Origin: Ktedonobacteraceae bacterium
GTDB taxonomy: Bacteria > Chloroflexota > Ktedonobacteria > Ktedonobacterales > Ktedonobacteraceae
Reading direction: 5' to 3'
Length of the DNA stretch: 48,905 bases
Assembly: GCA_035533955.1 (NCBI GenBank)
Contig: DATLSW010000273.1
Coordinates: 1 to 48,905, forward strand
Part shown: piece by piece, positions 14,091 through 32,633 of the stretch
Layout: each line of letters begins with the position of its first letter
How positions within the stretch are numbered: the stretch's first letter is position 1
Position numbers and translations under genes: made by a program
The notes under the pieces: generated by a model
What the model was told of the DNA's origin: nothing
The model's database searches: none
The model's input: the letters and a program-made list of their open reading frames with translations, nothing else

Positions 14091-14663
14091 TCAGATGAAC
14101 AGGGAAACGTCGGCATCCTTCGCGTAGTCGATGAAGTGGGTCGCTCCGCACACCTGCTCAACGCCGTCGATAAAATCCTCTGACTTATAGCCGAAAACGT
14201 CCATCGTCATACCGCAAGGCATCAGTTTGACACCGGCTTCAACCGCCATTTCCAGCAGTTCTTCAATCGTCGCGACGTTATGGGCCTTAAACATCTTCTT
14301 CATGATCGTCGTTCCCATCGCCGTCATGCCAGGTATCGCGCCGACGATGTTGGGTACAGGCATGGGCATAGCTGGATTCCCCAGAGGCGCAACGCTCAGA
14401 TGTTTCTTCTTGTGAATGATGTTCAGGCCGTAGAATGTGAAGAAAATGCCTACGTCCCAGCCCAGAGCCGCCGCTGTCGTCGCCAGAATCAATGGAGGAT
14501 AGGCCCAGTCAAGCGTCCCCTTGGTGGCGATGATCGCGAGCCGTGGCGTGCGTGTCTCCTTCTCTGCCTCTTTCTCCTGTAAGTAAGCGTCCACTCGTTC
14601 GCGGATGAGACGCTCTATCTCAGGAGACAATCTTTCCTGCTGTGTTTCCGTCTGCATATCCAT
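14091..14663 (-). CDS. DsrE/DsrF/DrsH-like family protein (YrkE / PF13686-type)
   Basis: LAIIATKGTLDWAYPPLILATTAAALGWDVGIFFTFYGL...VKLMPCGMTMDVFG...ADVSLFI matches my memory of Bacillus YrkE-type proteins with the conserved Cys. The N-terminal ~45 aa form a charged helix. AAGGAG RBS. Confidence 0.7.
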   Translation of the reverse strand: MDMQTETQQERLSPEIERLIRERVDAYLQEKEAEKETRTPRLAIIATKGTLDWAYPPLILATTAAALGWDVGIFFTFYGLNIIHKKKHLSVAPLGNPAMPMPVPNIVGAIPGMTAMGTTIMKKMFKAHNVATIEELLEMAVEAGVKLMPCGMTMDVFGYKSEDFIDGVEQVCGATHFIDYAKDADVSLFI

Positions 14664-14753
14664 TGGGCAACTCCTTCCGCAAGCTCACCGCTTGCTGCTT
14701 TAGATAACGATGTTACTCCATATTCTACGTGCTAAAAGCACGCTGAACGCCCA

Positions 14754-15836
14754 TTATGCTGCTTCGTGCGTGCCACTTGCTTGCAAGATGACGCTCGCAA
14801 TATCGTCAGGAGTAACGCCTGGAGCCTGGATGTGGTAATCCTGCCAGAAGAGCGCGACGCGCTCGCGTAACTCCTGCTGCTCCAGCGCCGATCCCAACAA
14901 CACCTGCTCCAACGCGCCGATGGTATCCTGCGGATAGATGAAGAAATCGCCGCTGAGCGTCACATCATCCAGCAGTTGATCGCGCACGCGGATAGTCGCG
15001 CGGATCAATCCTCCGGGCGCTTTATAGGCTGCTTCCTGCACATGAATCCCTTCGGAAATCTTCACGCCGGGACGTTTCAGGCCGCCAGCTTGATCTAGCC
15101 ACTCTCGGCTGCTGAACACCTCGCGCAGCCTGACCATCTCGCGCAGTTCCCGTTCGGTCAGGTCGCCGAAATAGGCATCGACGCCGAGTGTTTCGGCGAT
15201 CTGGCTGATCAGGATGCGCTTTCCTTCGTCCCACGATGGCGCTCTGTCGCCAAGCTCGCGGCGAATCGTCGATAAATATTCGCGCAAGCTCTGGTACACC
15301 TTGTCGCGAAACTTTTCCGACGGGACTTTGAGGACGCGCGCCATCACTTCGTAATCGAAATCGAAAATCAGGCTGCCGACTACCACCATAGCCTCGCCGA
15401 TGGTGGCCGCGCCCGTCCCGCCAATTTTGCGTCCCTCGATCTGAATATCGTTGACGGGTCGATGCACTGCCGGAATGCCCATCGCGCGCAGCGCGTTGAC
15501 CGGCCCGGCAAGATAGCGCGAGTAGACATCCTCTATGCGATAGGGTGCGCGCGAGCGGTGAACGATGAAATGCCAGAAAAGCTGGTTTTTATCCAGGTAA
15601 ACCGCTCCACCTCCTACTTGCCGTCGTGTAACCGGCAGTCCGTGTTCCTCACAATAAGCCACGTCCACTTCTTTGTCCAACTCCTGGTGATAGCCGAGGC
15701 ATACATACGGCGTCGCCGGACTCACCAGCGTCAGCGTATCCTCGCTCGCCTCGGTCATCGCCGAGGCCACGGCATGATAGATTACCTGGCTATCGAGCCA
15801 GGGAACTGTGCCGCCATCAATGACGCGAAGTTTCAT
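14754..15836 (-). CDS. lipoate--protein ligase (LplA-like, sLpl(AB)-type)
   Basis: Biotin/lipoate A/B ligase fold: TLVSPATPYVCLGYHQ, RRQVGGGAVYLD, and GRKIGGTGAA carrying the catalytic Lys. Lies directly downstream of two GcvH-like genes. Confidence 0.8.
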   Translation of the reverse strand: MKLRVIDGGTVPWLDSQVIYHAVASAMTEASEDTLTLVSPATPYVCLGYHQELDKEVDVAYCEEHGLPVTRRQVGGGAVYLDKNQLFWHFIVHRSRAPYRIEDVYSRYLAGPVNALRAMGIPAVHRPVNDIQIEGRKIGGTGAATIGEAMVVVGSLIFDFDYEVMARVLKVPSEKFRDKVYQSLREYLSTIRRELGDRAPSWDEGKRILISQIAETLGVDAYFGDLTERELREMVRLREVFSSREWLDQAGGLKRPGVKISEGIHVQEAAYKAPGGLIRATIRVRDQLLDDVTLSGDFFIYPQDTIGALEQVLLGSALEQQELRERVALFWQDYHIQAPGVTPDDIASVILQASGTHEAA

Positions 15837-15893
15837 ATCGCACCTTCCTCAATTTCCTGGACGAGCGCGGGAAGCGTCCCTGCTCTCTGCCCA

Positions 15894-16352
15894 TCAATCC
15901 ATGCAGCGATAGCATTGCAATTTGCGCGCCTCGATTTTCTCGCGATATTCTGCAACAGCCTGCACTTGCGGCAGCAGAAGCGGCCATTCCTCGTCAAAGC
16001 GAGTCGGCTTTAATCGTATCATCCAGCCGTTGCCATACGGGTCTTTATTCGCCAACAAGATGTTCTGCTTGAAGCCAGCTTCGTTCGTCGCGACGATCTC
16101 GCCTGTGAGCGGCGTCGGAAATGGGCCAACCCACTTGGCGCTTTCTATCGTCGCCGCACTCTGACCGCGCTGCAATGTCCGTCCTATCGCTTTGAAGCGG
16201 ATATGTACGAATTTCCCGCACTGCGCCTGCGCCGGATCGGTCATGCCCATTGTTACGCAGCCGTCTTCGTCGCGCCGCAGCCACACATCGTGTTCCACAT
16301 CAAAATAGCAATCTTCTGGAAACTCGCACCCGCGATAGATCACCGAGGTCAC
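15894..16352 (-). CDS. lbpA: GcvH-like lipoate-binding protein LbpA (copy 2)
   Basis: GMTDPAQAQCGKFVHI...GQSAATIESAKWVGPFPTPLTGEIV...DPYGNGWMIRLKP, with the lipoyl-Lys in ESAKW. Start set at GTG 16352, 9 nt after GGGAGGG. This avoids the 70-nt overlap implied by the track ORF. Confidence 0.8.
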   Translation of the reverse strand: MTSVIYRGCEFPEDCYFDVEHDVWLRRDEDGCVTMGMTDPAQAQCGKFVHIRFKAIGRTLQRGQSAATIESAKWVGPFPTPLTGEIVATNEAGFKQNILLANKDPYGNGWMIRLKPTRFDEEWPLLLPQVQAVAEYREKIEARKLQCYRCMD

Positions 16353-16374
16353 GTATTGTTTCCCTCCCGCGTTG

Positions 16375-16812
16375 TTACGCGCAGTGAATGCCCTTTTCAT
16401 CGAGCAATTGCTGGTAGAGGGCGACGCCTTCATCGCCCGTGACAAGGCTTTTGCACTCTTCGCCCCAGTTTGCCGGTTTCACCTTGACGATCCAACCTTC
16501 GCCATACGGGTCCTGGTTGAGCAGACCGGGATTCTTCTTGAGCGCTTCGTTGATAGCTACCAGTTCGCCGCCCACGGGCAGCGGAACCGGCCCGACCCAC
16601 TTACCGCTTTCAACCGTTCCCGCGCTTTGCCCCTTGCTGAGTGCCTTGCCCACCTTCTTCGGGCTGACCGCAATCACTTTGCCGGCCAGGTGTTGCGCCA
16701 CATCGGTCACGCCGACCGTCACCACTGAATCCGCGTCTAAGCGCGCCCAGATATGTTTGTCAACCAGGTAGTAGAGATTTTCCGGGATATTGCACCCGTT
16801 CGCTTTTGCCAT
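16375..16812 (-). CDS. lbpA: GcvH-like lipoate-binding protein LbpA (copy 1)
   Basis: GVTDVAQHLAGKVIAV...GQSAGTVESGKWVGPVPLPVGGELV...DPYGEGWIVKVKP, with the lipoyl-Lys in ESGKW. Confidence 0.85.
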   Translation of the reverse strand: MAKANGCNIPENLYYLVDKHIWARLDADSVVTVGVTDVAQHLAGKVIAVSPKKVGKALSKGQSAGTVESGKWVGPVPLPVGGELVAINEALKKNPGLLNQDPYGEGWIVKVKPANWGEECKSLVTGDEGVALYQQLLDEKGIHCA

Positions 16813-16850
16813 ACTGTTGTTCCGTCCCTCTCATTGTATGTTATCAGGCT

Positions 16851-17123
16851 TCACTCCTCGTGTGCCGCCTCCACATGATAGAGTAACATATCAAACGCCA
16901 CGAGGCGTATTTCGCGTTCATACGTATCCCAAAACTCTGGATCATGCCCGCGCGGTTTCACCTCTTGCTCGGCATATTCGTCACAGAGCGGGCAATCGAG
17001 CCGGTAGTAGAGCCGATCCGTCTTTTCGTCACGCCGCCCGCGCACGTTTTCTCCATGCCGCTCAACCAGGTGAGCATGGAGTTCGCGCCGCGACCCTTCG
17101 ACACTGCAATACGGACAGTGCAT
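16851..17123 (-). CDS. 90-aa putative zinc-binding protein with two CxxC...Hx4H units, unknown function
   Basis: MHCPYCSVEGSRRELHAHLVERH (C3,C6,H18,H23) and LDCPLCDEY...LLYHVEAAHEE (C44,C47,H83,H88). AGGAGG RBS. Tightly packed between emo and lbpA. Confidence 0.6.
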   Translation of the reverse strand: MHCPYCSVEGSRRELHAHLVERHGENVRGRRDEKTDRLYYRLDCPLCDEYAEQEVKPRGHDPEFWDTYEREIRLVAFDMLLYHVEAAHEE

Positions 17124-17132
17124 CGCAACCTC

Positions 17133-19316
17133 CTACGCCTCCGCTGCCGGGCTGGTAGCCGCTACAGCTTTCCGCGCCTCCAACGCCTCGTATACAAGCT
17201 CGATGATGTCTTTCACCATGATCTTGCCTTCGTTGCCCGACGTTTTCACGGCGTCTGTGTACATGGTTACATCTTTGGGACAGGCCACGACAAAGTAATC
17301 TACGTCACCCAGCGCGACTGCCTCGCGAATGCGATTCTCGCTGGGCCGTTCCGTGACGTCGCCTTCCGTCATCCAGATGCGGCCGCCGCCCGCGCCGCAG
17401 CAGAAGCTGTTCTCGCGGCAGCGCCCCATCTCGGTCACACGCAAGCCCAACGCTCCCAGGATCGTGCGCGGCGCGTCAAAGACGCGATTGTAGCGGCCCA
17501 GGTAGCAGGGATCATGATAGGTGGCATGTTTGTCGAGCGGGCTTTCAAAACGCAGTTGGCCGCTCTCTATCAGTCGGCACAGCAGCTCGGTATAATGAAT
17601 GACCTCGTAGTCGCCGCCCAGCGCGGCATACTCGTTCCGCAGAGCGTTCAGGCTGTGCGGGTCGGTCGTGACGATGGTTTTGAACGTCGCTTTGCCCAGC
17701 ATCTTGATGTTATGTTCGGCGAGCATCTGGAACAGGCCCTCTTCGCCCACGCGGCGTACATCATTGCCGGAGTTACGCTCGCCTTCATACAGAATACCGA
17801 AATCCAGGCCGGCTTCCTGAAACACCTTCGCTACCGTGCGCGTCATTTCCTGCACGCGCTGATCGTAGGACGCGAAATCGCCGACGAACCAGAGATATTC
17901 CACCGGCTCTTTCCGCGCGTCCTTGATCTTGAACGGGAGAGTTTTCGTCCACTTCGCGCGCAAGCGGTCAGAAGAGCCAAACGAATTGCCGTATTTGGAC
18001 AGATTGGTCAGAGCTTCTTGCAGCTTGGGATCCATTTCGCCTTCGTCGAGCAGGCTGCGGCGCATCTCTACGATCATCGGTACATGCTCGATGCCCACCG
18101 GACATGCTTCAACACAGGCGCGGCATGTTGTACACGCCCACAACGTCTCTGGCTTAATGACGCCGCCCGCGACTATGTTGATCTTGCCATTCGTCCCGTT
18201 ATCGCCAACGGTGAGAGGGACTGTGCGCTGTCTCAACCACGCCTTGACGCCCAACTGCTCGTCCGCGTGATCGCGCAAGTCCAGAATCAGGTCACGCGGC
18301 GAGAGCGGCGCGCCTGACGCGCGTGCCGGGCAGGCGTCGTGGCAGCGCCCGCACCTGGTGCAGGCATCCAGGTCGAGCAGGTGCTTCCAGGTGAAGTCGC
18401 GAATCTCGCGATAGCCAGGATGCGCTGGCGCGGGGTCTTCGGGGATAGGCGGCAGTTCAACACCGGCGCGTTCGTCACGAAACGAAACGTTGACGAAATC
18501 AGCAAGCATGTGTACCGCTTTGGAGAACGGCACGTAGGCCACAAAGGTCAGCGCCAGCAGCACATGCGTCCACCAGAGAATAAGCCGCCCATCCACAAGT
18601 TGCGGCGGCGTCATACCAAACCAGAGATAGACCTGCGAGACGGCGGAGCCGATGGGCGACCACACACCGTTGAGCGGGTGGTCGTGAGCAAGGCGCGTTC
18701 CTTCCAGTAAATAGCCGGTAACGCCGATGATCAGCAGCCCGCCAAGAAATATGGCGTCGCCTGTTTTGAAAATACGGCGATCATAGGTTCCAGGCGCGCG
18801 ATCCACGCGCTTGTAGTCCAATTGCGGTGGCCGTATGAACCAGCGGCGCGCGGCCATCGCCAGCAAGCCCGCGAGAAAGGCGATACCCATTATGTCGAGA
18901 ACGAGCTTGTAGCCGTCGTAAAAACCGCCGCGATAGAACTGCCAGTTCGTATTGATATTGCGTATGAGGTCATAATCGAGCGCAAGGATGACGGTTCCCA
19001 GGAAGAGGGTGATGAAGCCCCACATCAGCAAGAAGTGGAAAATTCCGGCGTAACTATCGCGTTTCTTAATGGTCGCGCTGCGCGCGATCAATTGTATGGC
19101 CCGCCCAAAACGACGGAAAAGGTGATCGAAGCGATAATCCGGCTTGCCGTGCAGGTACTTCCGCACCTTGAGAAACACGCCCAGGGCGAAGATCAGCGTG
19201 GAGATGGCGGCCAGACTATAGAACGTCACCTCCAATGCTGGTGTGAAAAACTCGAAGATTGGCCGTCCCAGTTGCACCGGGTCGCCTCCCGCTATTGACC
19301 AGAGTGTAAGCTGCAT
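17133..19316 (-). CDS. emo: membrane Fe-S oxidoreductase: NarI/DsrM-like multi-TM domain + 2x[4Fe-4S] + two CCG domains (HdrED/DsrMK-type fusion; EtfAB:quinone oxidoreductase-like)
   Basis: About 6 N-terminal TM helices with His residues (HFLLMWGF, WWTHVLLAL, KAVHMLADF). CTRCGRCHDACP and CTTCRACVEACP. CCG motif CRENSFCCGAGGG. Immediately downstream of etfBA. The symbol is assigned by context, recalling Syntrophomonas-type EMO. Confidence 0.7.
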   Translation of the reverse strand: MQLTLWSIAGGDPVQLGRPIFEFFTPALEVTFYSLAAISTLIFALGVFLKVRKYLHGKPDYRFDHLFRRFGRAIQLIARSATIKKRDSYAGIFHFLLMWGFITLFLGTVILALDYDLIRNINTNWQFYRGGFYDGYKLVLDIMGIAFLAGLLAMAARRWFIRPPQLDYKRVDRAPGTYDRRIFKTGDAIFLGGLLIIGVTGYLLEGTRLAHDHPLNGVWSPIGSAVSQVYLWFGMTPPQLVDGRLILWWTHVLLALTFVAYVPFSKAVHMLADFVNVSFRDERAGVELPPIPEDPAPAHPGYREIRDFTWKHLLDLDACTRCGRCHDACPARASGAPLSPRDLILDLRDHADEQLGVKAWLRQRTVPLTVGDNGTNGKINIVAGGVIKPETLWACTTCRACVEACPVGIEHVPMIVEMRRSLLDEGEMDPKLQEALTNLSKYGNSFGSSDRLRAKWTKTLPFKIKDARKEPVEYLWFVGDFASYDQRVQEMTRTVAKVFQEAGLDFGILYEGERNSGNDVRRVGEEGLFQMLAEHNIKMLGKATFKTIVTTDPHSLNALRNEYAALGGDYEVIHYTELLCRLIESGQLRFESPLDKHATYHDPCYLGRYNRVFDAPRTILGALGLRVTEMGRCRENSFCCGAGGGRIWMTEGDVTERPSENRIREAVALGDVDYFVVACPKDVTMYTDAVKTSGNEGKIMVKDIIELVYEALEARKAVAATSPAAEA

Positions 19317-19346
19317 TGGGACCTCTCTCTGGGTTATATGGTCTCT

Positions 19347-20330
19347 CTATTCCGAGCGCACAGCGGCAAGCCGCTCCGCCAGAGCAGGAACAATATCGAA
19401 AAGATCGCCGACGATGCCGTAATCGGCCACCTCGAAGATCGGCGCGCTGGCATCGCTATTGATGGCGATGATCAGTTCGGCGTCCTTCATGCCCTGTAGA
19501 TGTTCCGGCGCGCCGCTGATGCCCACTGCCAGGTACAGTTTCGGCTTCACCGTCAGTCCTGATTTGCCGACCTGCCGCAGTTTGGGCAGCCAACCGCTGT
19601 CGATGATCGGGCGCGAAGCTGAAAGAGCAGCGCCCAGCGCCGCGGCCAGTTCCTCCACCATCTCGATATTATCCTTGCTGCCGATACCGCGCCCGACGCT
19701 GACCAGTAGGGATTCGCGCGTGATATCCACGTCTCCCGCTTCGGGCATGCTCAATCCTTTAAAGCGCACGCGATCCGCGCCTGATACGCCGCTCGCCACT
19801 GTCTGCATCGACGCGGCTGGCACGGATGATTGTCCTTCCGCCGCTGGAAACACGCCCGCAATCACCGAGATAATGGTATGCTGGCTCTCGCTGGCTGTCT
19901 CAACGGCGATCTTGCCGCCGTACACCTGGCTGGTAGCGACTACTAGCCCATCCGCGATTTGTGCGTCGCTACAATAGGCGATGAGCGGCCAGTCCAGCGC
20001 GGCAGAGAGCGCGGCGGCGAGATCCATGCCCATCGACGTGCTGGCAATCATAGTCAGCGCGGGCTGTTCGTTCCGAAGCAGTATTCTCAGGGCCAGTTCG
20101 GCTCGTTCGGGGACGAAATGCTGTAAGGCTGGATCATCCACCACCAGCACATGATCGGCAGCGCCCAACTGCGCGGCCAATCCTTGCGCCTCGTGACCGA
20201 TCAAGACCGCGACAACGCGCCCGCCCAGCAGCGGGGCAAGCGACCGCGCCTTGCCAAGCATCTCAAACGTCACGTCGCTCAGTTTGCCCTCCAACTGCTC
20301 AGCGACGACAAAGACATCATGTTCAGCCAT
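19347..20330 (-). CDS. etfA: electron transfer flavoprotein alpha subunit
   Basis: C-terminal FAD-binding block KLYLAVGISGAPEHLQGMKDAELIIAINSDASAPIFEVADYGIVGDLFDIVPAL. Confidence 0.9.
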   Translation of the reverse strand: MAEHDVFVVAEQLEGKLSDVTFEMLGKARSLAPLLGGRVVAVLIGHEAQGLAAQLGAADHVLVVDDPALQHFVPERAELALRILLRNEQPALTMIASTSMGMDLAAALSAALDWPLIAYCSDAQIADGLVVATSQVYGGKIAVETASESQHTIISVIAGVFPAAEGQSSVPAASMQTVASGVSGADRVRFKGLSMPEAGDVDITRESLLVSVGRGIGSKDNIEMVEELAAALGAALSASRPIIDSGWLPKLRQVGKSGLTVKPKLYLAVGISGAPEHLQGMKDAELIIAINSDASAPIFEVADYGIVGDLFDIVPALAERLAAVRSE

Positions 20331-20333
20331 TGA

Positions 20334-21119
20334 TCAGGCCCTCCATATTCCGCGCTCGCGGAGAATATCTATCACTCGCTCAACAACGTCGTCGGTATCA
20401 CCTTCGAGCATTTCGGCATGCCCGCTCGATTCAGGCTTATACATGCGGCGCACGCTGATACCCGCGCCTGCTCCTACCGGCTCGGCTGCTTCGATCTCCT
20501 CAATGGTGGCGGTCTTCATGGCCTGACGCACGCGGCTGACTGGCGCGTAACGTGGCACGGCTCGCGCGGCCTGCACCCCCAATACGGCAGGCAGATCGAC
20601 CTCAAAGTTCGCCATGATGCCTCCGGCATACTCCTGATGAATAGCGGCAACACGCGCCGCCGCATCGACCTCGATGCCGCTGACCACGCTGACATGCGGC
20701 AGGCCAAGATACGTGGCGAGCAGCACACCCACCTGACCATCCAGATCATCAGCGGCCTGCACGCCCGTCAGAATCAAATCGTAGGGCATTGCGCGCATCG
20801 CGGAGGCCAGCGCGCGCGCCGCCGTGTGGTTATCGTGACTCTCCTCGAAATCGCCGATGATCTTCACGGCCTTATCGGCCCCTTTCGCGATGCAGGTGAA
20901 GAGCATCTCATCGACATCGCCGCTCGCCAGCGCCAGCACCGTTACCGTGCCGCCGTGCGCATCTTTCAGTTGCAGCGCCTCCTCAAGCGCGTTCTCGTCC
21001 CACTCATTCATCTTGTACTTGAGCCATTCCCGCTCGAGATCCGTTCCTTCGCTGTTGATCTCCAACTCCTCAACCAGGTCGGGAACCTGCTTGACGGGAA
21101 CAATGATATTGATTCCCAT
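20334..21119 (-). CDS. etfB: electron transfer flavoprotein beta subunit
   Basis: MGINIIVPVKQVPDLVEEL...WLKYKMNEWDENALEEALQLK is the typical EtfB N-terminus. Confidence 0.9.
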   Translation of the reverse strand: MGINIIVPVKQVPDLVEELEINSEGTDLEREWLKYKMNEWDENALEEALQLKDAHGGTVTVLALASGDVDEMLFTCIAKGADKAVKIIGDFEESHDNHTAARALASAMRAMPYDLILTGVQAADDLDGQVGVLLATYLGLPHVSVVSGIEVDAAARVAAIHQEYAGGIMANFEVDLPAVLGVQAARAVPRYAPVSRVRQAMKTATIEEIEAAEPVGAGAGISVRRMYKPESSGHAEMLEGDTDDVVERVIDILRERGIWRA

Positions 21120-21183
21120 ATCCTTGTATGCTCTCCTCTTTTATTACAACAGGTATATCCGCTCCACGCGGGCGCGATGCGGA

Positions 21184-22449
21184 TCAGCCGCGCATCGACT
21201 CATCGATGAGTTCGATGATGTCGCGCACGATGATTTTGCCATCGTTGCCCGTTGATTTGACAGCGTCCTCAAAGCGAGAGATCTCATAAGGGCAGCAAAC
21301 GGCCAGGACATCCGCGCCGGTACTGACCGCTTCGCGCACGCGCCGCTCTGACAGCCGTTCGGACATATGATTGCGCGAGAAACTGTCGAGCCACATGCCG
21401 CCGCCGCCGCCGCCGCAGCAATAGCCGTTCTCTTTGCAGCGCACCATCTCGGTCAGCTCGATGCCGGGGATGGCCTCTAACAGGCGGCGCGGCGCTTCGT
21501 ATTCGCCGTTGTGCCGTCCCAGGTAACAGGGGTCGTGGAACGTAACGCGATACGGCAGCCTTTTATGGAATGGAATGCGATCAATCATCGTCGCTAAAAA
21601 TTGCGTGTAGTGGAGGACGTGATAATCGCCTCCATATTTGGGATATTCCTTCTTAAAGGCGTTCAAAGCGTGCGGATCAGCCGTAAGCAGCGTGTTGAAC
21701 TGGTATTTGTTGAACATCTTGATGTTATGTTCGGTGAATGCCTCGAACAACCCCTTTTCGCCGGCGAGACGCTGCGAGTCGCAACTACACTTTTCTTCGA
21801 CGCCCAGGATGCCGTAATCGACATCAAGCGCGTGGAAGATGCGCGCGAGACCGCGCGCCGCGTCCTTGCCGCGCGGGTGATAGGCCGGGTAGCACTCCAC
21901 AAACCACAGAATATCGACCGGGCGGCGAATTTGCGCCATGATGGGAACAGGCACACCGGCATCCTTCACCCAGTCGGCGCGTTTGCGCTGGGCTTCGCCC
22001 AGGGGATTGCCGTAACGAAACGTGTTCTCGAATGCCTGCGCGAGTTCTGTCGGTGCGGTACCCTCAAGCACTGCCTGCTCGCGCACCGCGGGCATGATGT
22101 TGATCATGTTCACTTCTTTGGGACAGACGCGCAAGCAGTTCATGCAAGTAGTGCAGAGCCACAAATCCGGGCTTTCCAGGAGGTTCGTACCCGTCTGTAC
22201 CTTGCGAAATATCTTACGCGGGCTATAATCGCCAACGTGATCGACCGGGCAGACTGGCGTACATTTGCCGCACTGGTAGCACGCGCCCAACGACTCCCCG
22301 CCTGGAATGCTGGTGATCTGATCGAGTGACGAGGTGTCGTAATCCCAGATGACGCGCTGCTCGAACATACGATTCCAGTGGCCGGAAATATCGATCCCCT
22401 CGACGATAGCCACTGCTTTCTCTCGAATGCGCTCAGGTTCGACGGGCAT
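21184..22449 (-). CDS. shdrB3: fused HdrC-like (2x[4Fe-4S]) / HdrB-like (CCG domains) protein
   Basis: CYQCGKCTPVCP, CTTCMNCLRVCP, then the CCG motif CKENGYCCGGGGGGMW. The symbol follows the naming I recall for Etf-linked ('type II') shdr clusters and needs confirmation. Confidence 0.7.
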   Translation of the reverse strand: MPVEPERIREKAVAIVEGIDISGHWNRMFEQRVIWDYDTSSLDQITSIPGGESLGACYQCGKCTPVCPVDHVGDYSPRKIFRKVQTGTNLLESPDLWLCTTCMNCLRVCPKEVNMINIMPAVREQAVLEGTAPTELAQAFENTFRYGNPLGEAQRKRADWVKDAGVPVPIMAQIRRPVDILWFVECYPAYHPRGKDAARGLARIFHALDVDYGILGVEEKCSCDSQRLAGEKGLFEAFTEHNIKMFNKYQFNTLLTADPHALNAFKKEYPKYGGDYHVLHYTQFLATMIDRIPFHKRLPYRVTFHDPCYLGRHNGEYEAPRRLLEAIPGIELTEMVRCKENGYCCGGGGGGMWLDSFSRNHMSERLSERRVREAVSTGADVLAVCCPYEISRFEDAVKSTGNDGKIIVRDIIELIDESMRG

Positions 22450-22452
22450 AGG

Positions 22453-23217
22453 TTATACCTCCATGTTATAAATACCGAGTAATCGCCGGACTAGTTCTGG
22501 TAACTGTGGAATGACTTTGTTGAACTCTTTCGTCATCCGCATGCGCGTGATCGTGTACATGTAGACCGCGTAGACGCAAGCGAGGTAGACATCTGTACCG
22601 AGCAAGCCGCGCCCGCCGCGTTGAAATCCCGCTGCTTCACCGACAGAATTGACGAAGATCATCGCCTCGCCGACCTTCATATAGATCGCACCCGGCGACT
22701 CACCGTGCAAATCGTATTCCTGGATGGTCACGAGCGGCAACGAGCCGGTATTGCGCTGCGGATCCCAGATCCAGCGCGTCCACAACCAGTACCGCCCGCT
22801 GTCCCAGTAGTGCAGGCATTCGCTTGCCAGATCGCAGCACAGCGATTGATCGAGTGGTGCGAGTTGCTCGCAAAACCGGTCGAAGCGCGTCGCCAGCGGG
22901 TCCGCGTCAGGCAGCAGTTCGCCTAGCGCCGCTCGAAACGCGCCGGCATCGACGGCCGCCAGCACATCGGAGACGCGGCGGCGCGTCGAAAACACCGAGC
23001 GCAGGATCGCGCGAAACTCGTTCTCATTCAGTTCCGGCAGATGTTCCGGCGCGAGCAAACTGCGAAAACGCCGACTTTTCTCACGTAGTTCATCAACCAG
23101 CGCTGCGAGTTCCGCTTCGCTGATCTTCTCCAGCGCCTCACGCATGAATTCTTGCGCGCTGGGCGTATCCACGATTTGCCCGACCACTTCGTTATTATTT
23201 GGCGCTGGGGAAAGCAT
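22453..23217 (-). CDS. shdrH: conserved hypothetical at the sHdrH position (between hdrA-like and the next hdrB/C-like gene)
   Basis: No recognisable motif. Assignment is purely positional. GGAGG-type coupling to its neighbours. Confidence 0.45.
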   Translation of the reverse strand: MLSPAPNNNEVVGQIVDTPSAQEFMREALEKISEAELAALVDELREKSRRFRSLLAPEHLPELNENEFRAILRSVFSTRRRVSDVLAAVDAGAFRAALGELLPDADPLATRFDRFCEQLAPLDQSLCCDLASECLHYWDSGRYWLWTRWIWDPQRNTGSLPLVTIQEYDLHGESPGAIYMKVGEAMIFVNSVGEAAGFQRGGRGLLGTDVYLACVYAVYMYTITRMRMTKEFNKVIPQLPELVRRLLGIYNMEV

Positions 23218-23232
23218 GGCGATACCTCTTTG

Positions 23233-24306
23233 CTAGCTTGAAACCGCCGCGCTCTTTCGCAGCCGCCGTAGCGTGCCAACGGCCTTCATTGCGGCAGCCC
23301 CGCCCATCGAAATACTGTCTTCCAGGTCTTTCGGCCCGGCAGCCGCGCCCGCGACGAAAATACCTGCCACCGGCGTAGAGACGGTATCCATCGGCCCGCC
23401 GATAATTTCGAGGAAACCGTGCTGCTCGCGCGGCAGATTCAGCACTTTCGCGATCTCAATCGTGCCGACGCTGGGAACCATGCCGACTGAGAGAATCACC
23501 ACATCCATCGGGACTTCCATCGGGCGGCCCATCGTCGTATCCTCGCCCTTGATGACCAGCGAGTCGCCGCGCTTCACCACCTCCGTGATCATCCCTTTGA
23601 TGTAGTTCACCTTATGCTCTTCCTGGGCTTTCCAGTAGATTTGATCCTCCCAGAAGCCGTACATACGCATGTCGATGTAGAAAATGAAGACTTTCGCGTC
23701 AGGCAGTTGCTCTCTGATTTCGATGGCCTCCTTGGAGGCTATGCCGCAGCAAACCTTCGAGCAATACGTGTTACCGAGGCGACGGTCGCGCGAGCCGACA
23801 CACTGGATGAAGCAGACTCGCTTAGGCGGCAGGCCGGTTGATGGACGAACGAAGTTTTTTTCTTTCAACATCTTCTCGGCATCTACCAGCGTCAGCACAT
23901 CCTCATGCTCGTAGTAGCCATACATCTGCGTTTCGCGGCCCGGATCGAAGTGATCGAAGCCCGTTGCCACGATGATCGAGCCAATGGCGACCTTGCGCGT
24001 CTCGCCGCTCTTGTTAGCCAGCGTGATCTGGAAGTTGCCGACCTCGCCATCGCCGACCGTCACGCGCGTCTGGAGCAGAATCTCGATCAGGGGATCATCG
24101 CTGACCTCGCTGATCATGCGATTAATGGCCGTCTCGGCATCTTCCAGGTTTGGCGTGAGCGAGGCGTAGTGGGCGGCTTGCGGCGTCCCACCCAACCTAT
24201 CGCGTTTCTCCACGAGAACGACGGGCGAGCCGAGATCAGCCACGCCGCGCGCGGCATATAACCCGGCGGGGCCGCCGCCGATCACCAGAACAGTATCACC
24301 AGGCAT
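23233..24306 (-). CDS. shdrA: HdrA-like FAD- and [4Fe-4S]-binding flavoprotein (short sHdrA type)
   Basis: Dinucleotide fold VLVIGGGPAGLYAA and the HdrA cluster motif CVGSRDRRLGNTYCSKVCC. Start set at ATG 24306 (GGGAGG, 6 nt, ATG). It overlaps the shdrB1 stop by 11 nt. Confidence 0.85.
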   Translation of the reverse strand: MPGDTVLVIGGGPAGLYAARGVADLGSPVVLVEKRDRLGGTPQAAHYASLTPNLEDAETAINRMISEVSDDPLIEILLQTRVTVGDGEVGNFQITLANKSGETRKVAIGSIIVATGFDHFDPGRETQMYGYYEHEDVLTLVDAEKMLKEKNFVRPSTGLPPKRVCFIQCVGSRDRRLGNTYCSKVCCGIASKEAIEIREQLPDAKVFIFYIDMRMYGFWEDQIYWKAQEEHKVNYIKGMITEVVKRGDSLVIKGEDTTMGRPMEVPMDVVILSVGMVPSVGTIEIAKVLNLPREQHGFLEIIGGPMDTVSTPVAGIFVAGAAAGPKDLEDSISMGGAAAMKAVGTLRRLRKSAAVSS

Positions 24307-25510
24307 CAGCATCCTCCCAGGTTAAAAATTCTATATCGCCCCTGCGCAGTCGTTCGATGTCTTCCTGGAACTCGGCCCAGCGAGCTTGCCAGTCGATACC
24401 CATCTTTTCCAGCAGAGGGCGGTAATCAACACTGTGCCAGTGCAACTGGCAGATACGATAGGGATGAGCGCCCATCGCCAACGCGGCGAACTGCGCCTCG
24501 GACATCACCGGGATACCGACATTGCGCCCGTGCGCGCGCGCGGCGAACTGGCTCTTGTCCAGCGTCGTCACGCAGCCAGTATCGTGCGTGAGCGTTACAT
24601 CAGGATTGGCCTCTTCCTTCATGCGCTCGATCTTCCGCAGTGTGGCAAATGAACGGGTGAAGTCGCGCTGCACGAGAATATGGCGGAAGCCGAAACCGCA
24701 GCAGTCGAACCAGGTGGAGTAGTCGGCGACCTTCGCGCCCAATGTCTCAACAATCGCGCTGACGACGGCGGTGCGCTGTCCGTTGTACAGTTCGGGATCG
24801 TAGATGGCATCTTCGGCGACGAGCTTGTAGTAGTGGCACGCCGGATGCACCGTTACGGTAATGTTGCTCAGGTCCAGCACTTTAAGTTTGGCGATTTCAT
24901 AGCGCATGACATGCACCCACTCGCTGTAGTGGACGATCTCTTCGGGGATCACAAGCGGCTTGCCGAGTTTCGCCATGATATCGCGCACCTGTTTCCGCAA
25001 CTCAGGATGATGCACAAGCTGCTCGCGCGTCTCCTTATAATGGCCGTAGCTCGTGCCGCAATGGATCATGGGATAGTAGCCGGTCTCATACGCGGCGGCG
25101 AAATTGCGGGCGGCGACGGCGGCCTGCGCGGCGGCATTCGATGTGGCCGAGGCGTAGTAGTTCCAGGCCGTGCAGGACGTTTGATCTTTCGGGTCGTTGT
25201 ATTCCATGCCAAGCTTGCGATGCAGCCAGTAGATGGAAGTCGAATAGCCTGGAATATGGCCGCACTGCCCGCAGCTTTTATGATGCCAGGTGAACTGGCG
25301 CGGGATGCGTTTCGTGCGCCCATACTTCGTCATCACTTCCACGCAATCATCAGGTACGCGCTGCACAATCCACTCGCCCGCAGCCTCAAGCTCAAAAAGT
25401 TTCTCGCGGATATCTTCTGTCGGCGCGTTGGCTGGATCACGCTGAAAGACGCGCTGTGGGATCGTGCCGCGTGTCACGCTGGTAATTGGAACGGTAATTT
25501 CGGTTGCCAT
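24296..25510 (-). CDS. shdrB1: HdrB-like subunit with CCG domains
   Basis: WFDCCGFGFRH, HPACHYYK and IHCGTSYGH blocks. Sits in the expected position between the hdrC-like and hdrA-like genes. Confidence 0.8.
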   Translation of the reverse strand: MATEITVPITSVTRGTIPQRVFQRDPANAPTEDIREKLFELEAAGEWIVQRVPDDCVEVMTKYGRTKRIPRQFTWHHKSCGQCGHIPGYSTSIYWLHRKLGMEYNDPKDQTSCTAWNYYASATSNAAAQAAVAARNFAAAYETGYYPMIHCGTSYGHYKETREQLVHHPELRKQVRDIMAKLGKPLVIPEEIVHYSEWVHVMRYEIAKLKVLDLSNITVTVHPACHYYKLVAEDAIYDPELYNGQRTAVVSAIVETLGAKVADYSTWFDCCGFGFRHILVQRDFTRSFATLRKIERMKEEANPDVTLTHDTGCVTTLDKSQFAARAHGRNVGIPVMSEAQFAALAMGAHPYRICQLHWHSVDYRPLLEKMGIDWQARWAEFQEDIERLRRGDIEFLTWEDADAW

Positions 25511-25563
25511 AGCTCCTCCTGATCGGCATAAGCCGACGGAACGTGAATGTTGTCGTAAGGCGG

Positions 25564-26256
25564 CTAAGAGACGCTATATCCATGCTCTTCGAGGGTTTCT
25601 TCCATGACATCTTGCAAGATCATGTGCAGGCCCTCGTCTATTTCTTTGATCATGTCGAGTACGCCGGTCATGTGCCAGATCAGGTAGAGTTCGGTGATAG
25701 TCTTCTCATCGACATCCCAGGCAAGTTCGGTCGTGTGCAGGGTTTCTGGCGGGAGCGCGCGCCGCCATAGTTCAAGATTGTCCGAAACTTCGCGCACGTC
25801 CGGCCCCCAATCGGGGAATGCGTCGGGCTGCAACATATCCGGCGAAACCTGCGTCCCGGTGGACATAATCTTGTATACGACGCGGCCATACCCTTCAAGA
25901 GCCTCTTTCGCCGTGTGCAAGCCGTTTTTGACGGCAACTTCGCGCAGGATAGTAATGACGCCGCCGGGAGAGTTGCCGCGCGGGCAGCGATCGCATGAGA
26001 AGCATTGCGAGCAGTTCCAGACATCCTCGTTCATCTGATGGTAAACCAGATCGATATCCTCGCGCGCAACCGCCTGCGTAATCTTGCGCGGGCTGAAATC
26101 GTAGAACCGTGCCGAAGGGCAGGCCGCCACGCAGATGCCGCATTCATAACAGCCTTTGAGGTAGTCATGAAAGCGAATATCTTCTGTGACCTGGGTAAAG
26201 AGTCGTTCCTTTTCTTCGTAGGGAACAGCAGCGTACTTATCTACAATCTGGGCCAA
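25564..26256 (-). CDS. shdrC1: HdrC-like 2x[4Fe-4S] ferredoxin subunit
   Basis: CYECGICVAACPS and CSQCFSCDRCPRG. There is no in-frame ATG near the 5' end. I chose TTG 26256 (GGAGG, 7 nt, TTG). The track start 26376 would overlap dsrE3 by 59 nt. Confidence 0.75.
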   Translation of the reverse strand: MAQIVDKYAAVPYEEKERLFTQVTEDIRFHDYLKGCYECGICVAACPSARFYDFSPRKITQAVAREDIDLVYHQMNEDVWNCSQCFSCDRCPRGNSPGGVITILREVAVKNGLHTAKEALEGYGRVVYKIMSTGTQVSPDMLQPDAFPDWGPDVREVSDNLELWRRALPPETLHTTELAWDVDEKTITELYLIWHMTGVLDMIKEIDEGLHMILQDVMEETLEEHGYSVS

Positions 26257-26317
26257 CGGATCGCCTCCATTCGGGCCAATGTACAATTGGCTGGGAATTA
26301 AGTGTGACTCGTTCAGC

Positions 26318-26698
26318 TCAAAATGAAATGACTGCGTCCGCTTCCAACGCCATATCGTTAAAAGCAGCGCCGCCAATCATCTCGACGTCGTCGATCAAGT
26401 CTTCGTAGTTGATGTTGCTTAAATCCAGGCTGGGCTGGCAGACGTAAAATTTGACGCCCAGGTCGGCAGCCTGATCGATAAAGCGGCGCAGAGGCGCGCC
26501 TTTACCATCCTTTTTGGGGATCAATTCCTCGGCAACATTCCGCACAAGCAGGGTGGGGCCGTTGACGGTGAAATAAATGCCTACCTCGATATCCATTGCC
26601 GCGGCAGACGCCGCGAGATAGAACGGGGTAGCTGAACGCTCTGGCGACTCGACGCCATTGGTCTGGATATACAAGAGTTTCTTTGGTGCATCATCCAT
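26318..26698 (-). CDS. dsrE3: DsrE-family sulfurtransferase (DsrE3-like)
   Basis: LLYIQTNGVESPERSATPFYLAASAAAMDIEVGIYFTVNG...VKFYVCQPS, with the conserved Cys in VCQPS. AAGGAG RBS. Confidence 0.75.
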   Translation of the reverse strand: MDDAPKKLLYIQTNGVESPERSATPFYLAASAAAMDIEVGIYFTVNGPTLLVRNVAEELIPKKDGKGAPLRRFIDQAADLGVKFYVCQPSLDLSNINYEDLIDDVEMIGGAAFNDMALEADAVISF

Positions 26699-26758
26699 GC
26701 GGCAACTCCTTTAGCTACAAAATGGGTTGGCGGGTCGAACGATATGTACCAACGGTAT

Positions 26759-27001
26759 TCAGCGTGTCTTGCGAACGTAAAACTTGAAGACTTTGCCTTC
26801 TTGCTCGATTGCCATGAGCTCGTTGCCTGTTTGTTTGGCCCAGGCGACCATATCCGCTTTGGAGCCAGGATCGTCGGCGAGCATGAGCAAGGTTTGGCCT
26901 GTCTGCAATTCTTTTACGGCCTTGCTGATCTTGATGATGGGAACGGGGCAAAGCATCTTGAGGCAGTCCAGGGTGCGGTCAATTTTCTCGACTGGTGGCA
27001 T
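26759..27001 (-). CDS. tusA: TusA-family sulfur carrier
   Basis: LDCLKMLCPVPIIKISKAVKELQTGQTLLMLADDPGSKADMVAWAKQTGNEL, with the Cys-Pro-x-Pro motif. Start set at ATG 27001, after GGGAGG. Confidence 0.85.
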   Translation of the reverse strand: MPPVEKIDRTLDCLKMLCPVPIIKISKAVKELQTGQTLLMLADDPGSKADMVAWAKQTGNELMAIEQEGKVFKFYVRKTR

Positions 27002-27130
27002 ATGTACCTCCCGGTTGTACAACAATGTACGAACGATAACTCTCTGCAAACTTCGACAGGGTAGGATCGCGAACGGGTTACAACGTAGGCAGCAGCATTC
27101 CAAAATTCATAATTTAGAATGTTAGAAACT

Positions 27131-27236: not shown

Positions 27237-28040
27237 TCACAGCGCTTGCTCGCTGAAGATAGGGCGCATCTCACGAATGGCTGTCATGCCGTTTCTGGTA
27301 TCGCCATGACGACGTAGCGCGAGACGGTAGCTGACACGGTCAGGTCGATAGTAGCGTTTTTGGAGGTAGATAGGAACATCGCCTGTCGTGTAAGAGATAC
27401 GCTGGATGAGCAGCAGCGCGGCATTCGGCACTGATTTGAGCAACGCTGCTTGTTCAGGGGTTGCTGTTGTCGCCGTAATGTTGAAAACCCCTGTCTCGAC
27501 GGGAATGCCATAGCGTTTTTCCAGAATATGATAGACTGATTCACTTGCCAGCATATCTTCCGTTAGCAACAAGCCGAAACGCAGTGGTAACCAGGTTGTA
27601 TCGTATGCGATTGGTCGCTCATTCGCCAGCCGCAAGCGATCTACGCGTACAACTTCATTGTGAACCGGCACAGCTAAGGCTTCAGCTATCTCCGGCGTCA
27701 CCGGCTCGCGCGTGAAGGTGAGTACGCGAGAAGAGGAGTTGAGTCCAGCCAGTTCCATATCCTCGACAAAGTCGGTCAGCCGCACCAGGTCTTGCTCGAT
27801 CGTCCGCTCAGCTACGTAGGTTCCCTTGCCATGCCGCCGCACAATCGCCCCTTCCGCTTCCAGCTCGTCGAGAGCCTGCCGCACGGTGATACGACTCACG
27901 CCATACCTCTTGATCAGTTCCGGCTCAGAGGGCAACCGATCACCTGGTTGGTAGTTGCCCTGTTCGATCTCAGTACGCACGATCTGTTTCAATTGATGAT
28001 AGAGCGGAGTCGGCCCAGGGTTCAGTTGTTGTGTAGTCAT
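27237..28040 (-). CDS. GntR-family (HutC subfamily, UTRA effector domain) transcriptional regulator
   Basis: LYHQLKQIVRTEIEQGNYQPGDRLPSEPELIKRYGVSRITVRQALDELEAEGAIVRRHGKGTYV plus a C-terminal UTRA-like domain. Start set at ATG 28040. Confidence 0.85.
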   Translation of the reverse strand: MTTQQLNPGPTPLYHQLKQIVRTEIEQGNYQPGDRLPSEPELIKRYGVSRITVRQALDELEAEGAIVRRHGKGTYVAERTIEQDLVRLTDFVEDMELAGLNSSSRVLTFTREPVTPEIAEALAVPVHNEVVRVDRLRLANERPIAYDTTWLPLRFGLLLTEDMLASESVYHILEKRYGIPVETGVFNITATTATPEQAALLKSVPNAALLLIQRISYTTGDVPIYLQKRYYRPDRVSYRLALRRHGDTRNGMTAIREMRPIFSEQAL

Positions 28041-28079
28041 GAATCCCCTTACTGTTAGTTTTAGTCTTGTCATGATGAT

Positions 28080-28335: not shown

Positions 28336-29784
28336 GTGAGAGGTGCAGCGATACAAATCGAACAAAATTTTCTCGATGGACTGGGACACCAATCCCACTA
28401 TGTCACCGATGGGACAAGCGGCTTTGCCGCTGTCGTCGATCCCCGGCGCGATGTAGATAGTTATCTGCAAGCAGCCAGACGAACGAATACTGTAATCACA
28501 CACATCCTGGAGACCCATATCCACAACGATTACGTCACCGGCGCGCGGGAACTGGCATCCCGGACGGGGGCGGCCATCGTTGCCAGCGCCGACGCACAGC
28601 TTGTCTATCCTCATCTACCCGTGCATGATGGCGATCAATTTCAAGTGGGTGAGTTGCGCTTCCAGGTCATGGCGACACCAGGTCACACGCCGGAACACAT
28701 GAGCTATATTGTCTATGAGCCAGGCAGTAGTACGCCCTACGCTGTATTCAGCGGAGGCAGTATGCTTGTCGGCGGAGCCGGTCGCACTGATCTGCTTGGA
28801 TCTGGTATGACACTGACGCTCACACGCCAGCAGTACCATTCATTGCGACGACTGCTGGATACGTTGCCCGGCAGCGTTCTCGTCTATCCCACGCATGGAG
28901 CCGGTTCATTCTGTGTCGCCAGCTCCGTCTCTTCCTCGCGCAGTACAACGATTGGACAGGAGCGGCTCGTCAGTCCCGCTGTCCAGGCATACAGCGAAGA
29001 GGCGTTCGTGAAGCAGCAGATCGCCGGGTATACAGCCTATCCGCACTATTACGAATACATGCACGACATTAATCAGAGTGGCCCGCGTATCCTCGGCTCG
29101 CTTCCCAAATTGGCCTCTTTTGCGCCTCCCGTTGTCCAGGAATGGATGCGGGCAGGCGTTCCGCTCGTTGACGGGCGTTCGCGCGACGCTTTCGCACGCG
29201 AACATGTTCCTGGTTCGCTGAATATAGAACTCGATAGTTCATTTGGAACGTATGTTGGTTGGCTTTTGCCGTTCAACACCCCCTTGCTGCTGTTGATCGA
29301 GGATGAAGAAGGGCGTCGCGAGGCGGTAGTGCAACTGGTGCGTATCGGCTATGAGAAAGCGCAGGGCTACCTGGAAGGGGGTATTGTCGGCTGGAAAGCA
29401 GCAGCCCTGCCCACTGGGAGCTTTGAGCGCATCGATCTCGCTACCCTGCATAAGCGTTGGGAAGCGCGCTATCCCATGACGATTATCGATGTGCGCCGCG
29501 ATGACGAGTGGCAAGAAGGTCACATCTCTGATTCCTTGCATTTCCACATCGGCGAATTGCCGCAGCAGCTCGGCGACGTTCCACGCGGTGGGCCGCTCGC
29601 GGTCATTTGCCGTACCGGGCATCGGGCCGAAATCGCGGCCAGCATCCTGGCCGCGAGCGGGCGTGAAGTCATCGCAGTTCAAGGCGGCGTCCCCGATTGG
29701 ATCGAGCGCGGTTGGCCTTCCGACAGCGGTGAGCCTTCAGTCTCGTCAACTCATCTGGATCAATCGTTGCACGCGCATCTATAA
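28336..29784 (+). CDS. MBL-fold persulfide dioxygenase fused to two rhodanese domains (CstB / YrkH-like)
   Basis: MBL motifs ETHIHNDYVTG, TPGHTPEH, YPTHGAGSFC. The C-terminal rhodanese has the active-site loop VICRTGHRA. GTG start with a weak SD, so the start is uncertain. Confidence 0.75.
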   Translation: MRGAAIQIEQNFLDGLGHQSHYVTDGTSGFAAVVDPRRDVDSYLQAARRTNTVITHILETHIHNDYVTGARELASRTGAAIVASADAQLVYPHLPVHDGDQFQVGELRFQVMATPGHTPEHMSYIVYEPGSSTPYAVFSGGSMLVGGAGRTDLLGSGMTLTLTRQQYHSLRRLLDTLPGSVLVYPTHGAGSFCVASSVSSSRSTTIGQERLVSPAVQAYSEEAFVKQQIAGYTAYPHYYEYMHDINQSGPRILGSLPKLASFAPPVVQEWMRAGVPLVDGRSRDAFAREHVPGSLNIELDSSFGTYVGWLLPFNTPLLLLIEDEEGRREAVVQLVRIGYEKAQGYLEGGIVGWKAAALPTGSFERIDLATLHKRWEARYPMTIIDVRRDDEWQEGHISDSLHFHIGELPQQLGDVPRGGPLAVICRTGHRAEIAASILAASGREVIAVQGGVPDWIERGWPSDSGEPSVSSTHLDQSLHAHL

Positions 29785-32587: not shown

Positions 32588-32633
32588 ATCGGCCGTACCG
32601 ACGTTGCCTTGCCTGAAAAGGAGCTATAGATAG

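Follow-up and report, generated by a model that had tools for sequence, protein, structure and literature searches.

Organization and identity of the gene cluster

We present here an analysis of contig DATLSW010000273.1 of a Ktedonobacteraceae bacterium, centred on three adjacent genes that code for both subunits of an electron-transfer flavoprotein (Etf), EtfB and EtfA, and a 727-aa membrane protein, a homologue of Etf:(methyl)menaquinone oxidoreductase (EMO, or EtfD). The window is the entire 48,905-nt contig, which belongs to a metagenome-assembled genome (MAG) of 3.8 Mb and 79% completeness; the closest relatives of its proteins are found in Ktedonobacteraceae MAGs. We consider it probable (about 0.78) that the three genes, as an EtfBA-EMO module, belong to a sulfur-oxidation operon of the type II sHdr-LbpA kind and pass electrons to menaquinone.

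The genes belong to a single minus-strand run (14091-27103) with the order tusA-dsrE-shdrC1B1AH-B3-etfBA-emo-lbpA-lbpA-lplA-dsrE3 (Table 1), in which intergenic gaps of 64, 3 and 30 nt separate shdrB3 from etfB, etfB from etfA and etfA from emo, respectively. An earlier note, made from the letters of this DNA alone, had placed etfB, etfA and the gene of the 727-aa protein between shdrB3 and lbpA; open reading frames (ORFs) were found at exactly the positions it gave, on the minus strand, and their Pfam domains agree with the assignment. A promoter-like site is located ahead of tusA (27159-27131, minus strand), and no terminator-like intergenic sites were found on the minus strand of the run.

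Two types of sHdr cluster were defined by Tanabe et al. 2024, type II having the composition shdrC1B1AHB3-etfAB-emo, with Chloroflexota among its main host phyla (PMC11094781). The arrangement was first described in Sulfobacillus by Justice et al. 2014 as 'Hdr cluster II' (PMC4378227) and was named Group III by Cao et al. 2018 (PMC6067878), while EtfAB together with EMO was suggested to carry electrons to menaquinone (Kumpel et al. 2024, as cited in PMC11094781). In the present contig shdrC1, B1, A, H and B3 and the etf genes lie in one syntenic cluster on one strand (19347-26376), followed by emo and lbpA, and sHdrB3 (421 aa) is the fused dicluster-ferredoxin and CCG protein (Fer4_9 and CCG), predicted to bind a single non-cubane cluster, that is expected of this type. 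Gene set and order are those of the published type II systems (fused sHdrB3, etfBA, a membrane CCG protein, two lbpA, lplA, DsrE and TusA), from which the locus differs in nothing of substance. It is thus an ordinary member of a known system, a further Chloroflexota example which adds no new category, and the idea of a quinone exit through Etf and EMO is already in print.

Conservation of the shdr-etf-emo linkage

For comparison we used 17 loci gathered via the EMO protein and 80 gathered via an sHdrA alignment, and residue counts were taken over 57 sHdr-linked EtfBs and 33 sHdr-linked EMOs. As far as each locus extends, type II gene content is present in all 80 sHdrA loci, and the synteny is found in Chloroflexota, Actinomycetota, Bacillota (Sulfobacillus, Alicyclobacillus), Acidobacteriota, Marinimicrobia, Bacteroidota, Dormibacterota, Rokubacteria and others. 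The etfBA genes occur in each of the 16 loci having at least 6 kb downstream of shdrB3, and emo is the next cluster gene in 33/33 loci with room after etfA, starting within 400 nt of etfA in 30 of them. Gene order varies among loci, since lbpA, lplA or lipoate-synthase genes may intervene, and therefore selection on the association is favoured over a frozen operon. The sHdr-linked Etfs share 50-85% identity with one another and about 30% with the Etfs of non-sHdr emo loci and with the other Etf pair of this genome; by these sequence identities they form a clade of their own. In three loci (L085, L095 and L102) additional shdrA-like and shdrB3-like genes are located upstream of the type II cluster, ahead of shdrB1.

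Fold of EMO and its predicted haem and clusters

The protein encoded by emo matches the cryo-electron microscopy structure of Mycobacterium smegmatis EtfD (9OJN; 9ojn_A) with an E-value of 4.6e-84 and about 29% identity. The same structure is the top Foldseek match (E 2.5e-37, TM-score 0.82/0.81) of the AlphaFold2 model of EMO (pLDDT 89.5, pTM 0.88), which places the protein in the EtfD fold. Hydropathy analysis yielded five membrane segments and the model contains five long helices, as in solved EtfD, so that the count of about six transmembrane (TM) helices in the earlier note has to be corrected to five.

The EtfD ligands described in PMC13083937 were transferred to EMO via a HMMER alignment. 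The haem b ligands His78 and His241 of EtfD correspond to His94 and His269 of EMO, Arg137 and Arg306 to Arg158 and Arg324, and the menaquinone-site residues Phe85 and Phe230 to Phe101 and Phe258. All of 256 homologues retain His94 and Arg158, 255 of them also have His269, and the two Phe residues are conserved in 89% (Phe101) and 86% (Phe258). Both CX2CX2CX3CP motifs (Cys319/322/325/329 and Cys395/398/401/405), aligned to clusters D3 and D4 of EtfD, retain all eight Cys residues, and the two [4Fe-4S] motifs read previously from the sequence are thus real. Haem ligation had likewise been anticipated there, and one bis-His pair (His94/His269) agrees with this; it is the only pair conserved as haem ligands. 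The CCG domains that had been described proved to be one intact domain (residues 599-680), the first CCG-equivalent region having lost all its Cys. As haem ligands and quinone-site residues are conserved, the TM domain does not lack the features whose absence would have spoken against a quinone-reactive protein.

A second bis-His haem, as reported for the EMO of Syntrophus aciditrophicus, was considered and rejected as a conserved feature: TM2 contains a single His, and a third residue, His251, 97% conserved in the wider family, is replaced by Asp or Ala in 14/33 sHdr-linked EMOs. From the positively charged loops 51-87 and 158-185, the positive-inside rule predicts that both the Fe-S domain and the haem lie towards the cytoplasm. 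The predicted wire of EMO leads from a single non-cubane cluster through two cubanes and a single haem to menaquinone.

EMO and EtfD have in common the five-TM domain, one haem b on an equivalent His pair, the Phe pair, the Arg contacts, two cubanes and a non-cubane site with a His ligand; EMO differs by the absence of the roughly 30-kDa disordered C-terminal tail of EtfD and by its partner, which is sHdr here and beta-oxidation in the case of EtfD. The S. aciditrophicus protein, an ETF:methylmenaquinone oxidoreductase reported to be di-haem (PMC8805022), is by its description likewise a membrane haem/Fe-S protein carrying electrons from a non-bifurcating Etf to (methyl)menaquinone, from which EMO is distinguished by the single conserved bis-His pair. 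The earlier comparison with HdrED/DsrMK applies to general architecture, namely a cytochrome b membrane part, an HdrD/DsrK-like Fe-S/CCG part and a link to the quinone pool. In HdrDE and DsrMK, however, these parts reside on separate polypeptides and include two haems and a two-cluster CCG site, whereas EMO is one polypeptide with a single site each for haem and for a CCG cluster, and therefore has no two-cluster disulfide-cleaving active site. With the NCBIfam DsrK model the score is 58.6 bits, where the cut-off is 400, and the HdrC match is also far below its cut-off.

Loss of the distal cluster

Ligands of the linear [3Fe-4S] cluster D1 of EtfD (Cys503/538/581/584) are replaced in EMO by Asp480, Asn515, Asp552 and Ser555, and they are likewise replaced in 33/33 sHdr-linked EMOs. 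At the non-cubane site D2 the last Cys has become Asp682, while His554, Cys604, Cys639, Cys640 and Cys679 are kept and Cys633 is extra. Compared with the 2026 EtfD structure, the sHdr-linked EMOs are without the linear [3Fe-4S] cluster and seem to contain three clusters and a single haem.

The family is split accordingly into a 'CCCC' sub-family (at most 43% identity to the EMO studied here) with the four-Cys pattern of mycobacterial EtfD, and a 'DNDS' sub-family (at least 44% identity) without the four D1 Cys; loss of D1 marks a sub-family and not exclusion from the EMO/EtfD family. The four replaced positions span about 17652-17879 of the window (minus strand). In an alignment of 40 EMO sequences, drawn from closer homologues and composed almost entirely of DNDS members, Asn515 is nearly invariant and Asp480 and Asp552 are fully so; the nearby Glu513, Asp519, Arg521, Glu525 and Glu526 are likewise invariant. 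Since the replacements of Cys are non-random and conserved, they point to a new function of the former D1 site, which may be, for example, metal binding or docking of Etf.

We also considered whether the D1-less type is specific to sHdr, and rejected this, as it occurs in a locus of a Betaproteobacteria MAG (L020:6556-12115) that contains etfB-etfA, a 550-aa FAD oxidoreductase and a D1-less EMO, and no shdr genes. The FAD oxidoreductase has an NAD_binding_8 domain and weak DAO and Amino_oxidase matches. The D1-less sub-family therefore also serves other flavoprotein dehydrogenases.

Type of the Etf

Several residues of EtfB distinguish bifurcating from canonical Etfs. Gly123 (A. fermentans numbering) is invariant in bifurcating Etfs and substituted by a bulkier residue in canonical ones (PMC12630350). 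The zipper motif reads DGDTAQ in the bifurcating and DDDSNQ in the canonical group 1 proteins, 68% of which carry at the Gly123 position an extra Asp whose proposed role is to take the place of the phosphate that is lacking there (PMC8958531). In R. palustris numbering, the FAD phosphate is bound by Thr94 and Thr97, and replacement of both by Ala yields an AMP-containing, canonical-like Etf (PMC9713284).

We aligned our EtfB to those of A. fermentans, C. difficile and T. maritima and to CarD and LctB of A. woodii. The zipper reads DDLDGQ, with Asp125 at the Gly123 position, and the Thr residues of the ADTxATS stretch in C. difficile, A. fermentans and CarD have Asn97 and Ala100 as their counterparts, so that neither bifurcating signature is present. 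The same applies to the sHdr-linked EtfBs in general: the Gly123 position is occupied by Asp in 54/57, Glu in 2/57 and Gly in 1/57, and Thr is found at the Thr97 position in none of the 57 and at the Thr94 position in five. The best PDB match of EtfB is the beta subunit of the AMP-containing ETF of Methylophilus methylotrophus W3A1 (1.3e-44; best bifurcating EtfB, 5e-23). Both this canonical FAD- and AMP-containing ETF (1O94 and related entries) and ours are without bifurcating signatures; they differ in that the W3A1 protein has trimethylamine dehydrogenase as partner and DQAYAS as zipper. No ferredoxin domain was detected by Pfam at the N-terminus of EtfA, in which Arg240, Ser257 and His277 are invariant across the sHdr-linked alignment; these were paired with the alpha-FAD triad Arg237/Ser254/His274 (PMC12630350) by identical spacing, not by alignment.

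The earlier note had left the type of the Etf to a comparison of signature motifs, and this comparison returned canonical, non-bifurcating signatures. On this basis the Etf is quite likely canonical, and owing to the extra Asp at the Gly123 position EtfB is predicted to bind AMP and not a second FAD. The consistent absence of the bifurcating-FAD signatures speaks against a flavin-based bifurcation by the Etf. A second Etf pair of the same genome (C271:3226-5000) has, unlike the sHdr-linked Etf, Gly at the Gly123 position (EtfB motif DGYTGM), and might belong to the bifurcating or the FixAB type.

Relationship of sHdrB3 to EMO and the 90-aa protein

Residues 316-712 of EMO share 38% identity over about 400 residues with sHdrB3, and in both proteins there are a 'DPH' motif and an additional Cys, and the last CCG Cys is substituted by an acidic residue. 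Two Cys are kept in sHdrB3 at the first two D1 positions. Its second CCG motif is complete and its first is without the CxxC-equivalent part (DPHA), which fits the published remark that only one non-cubane cluster is bound. This resemblance suggests that sHdrB3 is a paralogue of the soluble domain of EMO.

Nine nucleotides after emo starts the gene of a 90-aa protein containing His-rich motifs as well as two CxxC motifs. Its homologues (39-69% identity) directly follow emo in 8/9 sHdr-linked loci, L001 being the exception; the eight belong to Chloroflexota, Actinomycetota, Acidobacteria and 'Deltaproteobacteria' MAGs, and the wider set of sHdrA loci adds Dormibacterota and Gemmatimonadota. None of the non-sHdr emo loci contains the protein, and no homologue was detected in the type II loci of Bacillota and Marinimicrobia inspected, a point in which these copies of the cluster differ from the present one.

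Taken together, these observations allow a tentative picture, which we hold to be rather unlikely in its entirety: the sHdr-linked EMOs would be a sub-family in which D1 was swapped for an invariant Asp-Asn-Asp-Ser set, sHdrB3 would be their soluble paralogue, Etf would shuttle between two homologous HdrD-like docks, with sHdrB3 as donor and EMO as acceptor, and the 90-aa protein would be an accessory subunit. We did not find this picture stated in the literature. The residue-level points (Etf signatures, loss of D1, likeness of sHdrB3 and EMO) are incremental and may help groups working on sHdr.

Proposed electron path and alternative explanations

In the proposed path, the TusA and DsrE proteins would deliver sulfane sulfur to the sHdr core (C1, B1, A, H) for oxidation. 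From sHdr, electrons would pass via sHdrB3 to the single electron-transfer FAD of an AMP-containing, non-bifurcating EtfAB, and the reduced Etf would dock on the cytoplasmic HdrD-like domain of EMO, which would pass the electrons to menaquinone. Gene identities, synteny, conserved ligands, fold and Etf signature residues are observed; what we infer is how electrons pass at each step, in which direction they flow and which cofactors are bound. The genome contains menA; no match to MqnA of the futalosine pathway was obtained in it, an absence which is uninformative at 79% completeness. The earlier note had arrived at a similar scheme, in which sHdr electrons reach the quinone pool through an Etf relay and EMO, unlike in the lipoamide/NAD+ route discussed for type I systems. 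Conserved synteny, the conserved haem and quinone residues and the contig's lack of an acyl-CoA dehydrogenase gene support this scheme, which equals the published hypothesis. All nine acyl-CoA dehydrogenase genes of the genome are located on other contigs, and the nearby partner of this kind that would have undermined the scheme is thus missing from the 48.9 kb.

Several points weigh against this path. By textbook potentials, menaquinone (about -74 mV) is at least as reducing as the sulfite/sulfane-sulfur couple (about -40 mV). For this step, the product would have to be removed or activated persulfides would have to serve as substrates. The best PDB matches of EtfA are alpha subunits of bifurcating Etfs (5ol2_A, 2.7e-56) and the EtfB motif retains 'GQ(V/L)G', a tail characteristic of such Etfs, so that the canonical call is carried by few signature residues. 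Either sHdrB3 or sHdrA is a candidate donor to Etf, and a complex prediction of EtfB, EtfA and sHdrB3 (residues 40-421), in which a control scored nearly as high, speaks neither for nor against sHdrB3. With 79% completeness, statements on gene absence from the genome are weak. In the literature we found no biochemical measurement of any step of the type II electron path, and there too the menaquinone route is a proposal (PMC11094781).

The note had left both exit to and entry from the quinone pool possible. Entry would mean a module working in reverse, from menaquinol through EMO and Etf, perhaps driven by proton-motive force, to sHdrB3/sHdr for a reduction, for example of a disulfide or lipoamide. 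Direction cannot be fixed from sequence, and the Syntrophus EMO is reported to be bidirectional in vivo (enoyl-CoA respiration, PMC8805022). Nevertheless, the operon lies in a sulfur-oxidation island (TusA, DsrE, and, elsewhere on the contig, a persulfide-dioxygenase (PDO)-rhodanese gene and a Soe-like molybdoenzyme) and the organisms with type II systems are known sulfur oxidizers (PMC11094781), which favours exit and renders the reverse module improbable. It is also hardly likely that Etf bifurcates with a second FAD and, in the manner of EtfABCX/FixABCX, couples quinone reduction to NADH or to a carrier of low potential. The similarity of EtfA to bifurcating alpha subunits, with AcrA/FixB-like proteins as nearest NCBIfam models, would agree with bifurcation, yet it is countered by Asp125, Asn97 and Ala100 in place of Gly123, Thr94 and Thr97, by the near absence of this Gly among the sHdr-linked EtfBs, by the far better match of EtfB to W3A1 ETF than to any bifurcating EtfB (5e-23 or worse), and by the missing ferredoxin domain of EtfA.

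Finally, EtfBA-EMO might be a general respiratory Etf:quinone module for acyl-CoA or other flavin dehydrogenases, merely co-located with shdr. Such a role would suit the nine acyl-CoA dehydrogenase genes, the finding of a single EMO in the incomplete assembly and the D1-less EMO beside etfBA and an FAD oxidoreductase in the non-sHdr locus L020. We regard it as very improbable, however, as linkage to shdrB3 is kept in every informative locus across many phyla, the sHdr-linked Etfs are a separate clade, further Etf genes, including one that adjoins an ETF-QO fragment, are present in the genome, and an acyl-CoA dehydrogenase gene is lacking on the contig. Delivery of sHdr electrons to menaquinone through EtfBA and EMO is therefore the reading that we prefer.

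Features of the operon and neighbouring genes

Table 1. Genes of the minus-strand run, listed in the direction of transcription
Feature	Position	Strand	Supporting match
tusA, sulfur carrier, first operon gene	26759..27103	-	Pfam TusA 3.9e-23
dsrE-type sulfurtransferase	26318..26698	-	Pfam DsrE 1.4e-17
shdrC1, two-[4Fe-4S] ferredoxin-like subunit	25564..26376	-	Fer4_8; NCBIfam HdrC-like matches
shdrB1, CCG-domain subunit, proposed catalytic	24296..25510	-	Pfam CCG; NCBIfam HdrB 2.7e-39
shdrA, short HdrA-like Fe-S flavoprotein	23233..24312	-	Pyr_redox_2; NCBIfam HdrA2 3e-78
shdrH, conserved hypothetical of sHdr clusters	22453..23217	-	no Pfam match; position kept in related loci
shdrB3, fused HdrC-like dicluster and CCG	21184..22449	-	Fer4_9 + CCG
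etfB, small Etf subunit, 261 aa	20334..21119	-	Pfam ETF 2e-30
etfA, large Etf subunit, 327 aa, electron-transfer FAD	19347..20330	-	Pfam ETF + ETF_alpha
emo/etfD, Etf:(methyl)menaquinone oxidoreductase homologue, 727 aa	17133..19316	-	Pfam Fer4 dicluster + CCG; PDB 9ojn_A
90-aa CxxC/His zinc-finger-like protein	16851..17123	-	sub-threshold zf-Di19 match only
lbpA1, lipoate-binding protein	16375..16812	-	GCV_H 4e-38
lbpA2, lipoate-binding protein	15894..16445	-	GCV_H 4.5e-29
lplA, sLpl(AB)-type lipoate-protein ligase	14754..15836	-	LplA-B_cat 1.9e-38
DsrE3-like sulfurtransferase	14091..14663	-	DrsE_2 4.3e-52

Long ORFs antisense to emo (16944-18317, plus strand, 457 aa) and to etfB (20418-21209, plus strand, 263 aa) are most likely shadow ORFs of GC-rich coding DNA, because strong homologues exist for the minus-strand genes. 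A metallo-beta-lactamase/rhodanese fusion, which is PDO-like, is encoded on the plus strand (28336-29784) a short way upstream of the shdr operon, and a GntR/UTRA regulator gene (27237-28073, minus strand) is divergent from the gene of this fusion. Further along, at 30959-35531 on the plus strand, the gene of a 4Fe-4S/NrfD fusion protein (542 aa) precedes that of a molybdopterin oxidoreductase (965 aa), a pair which may represent a SoeABC-like sulfite:quinone enzyme that would use up the sulfite made by sHdr.

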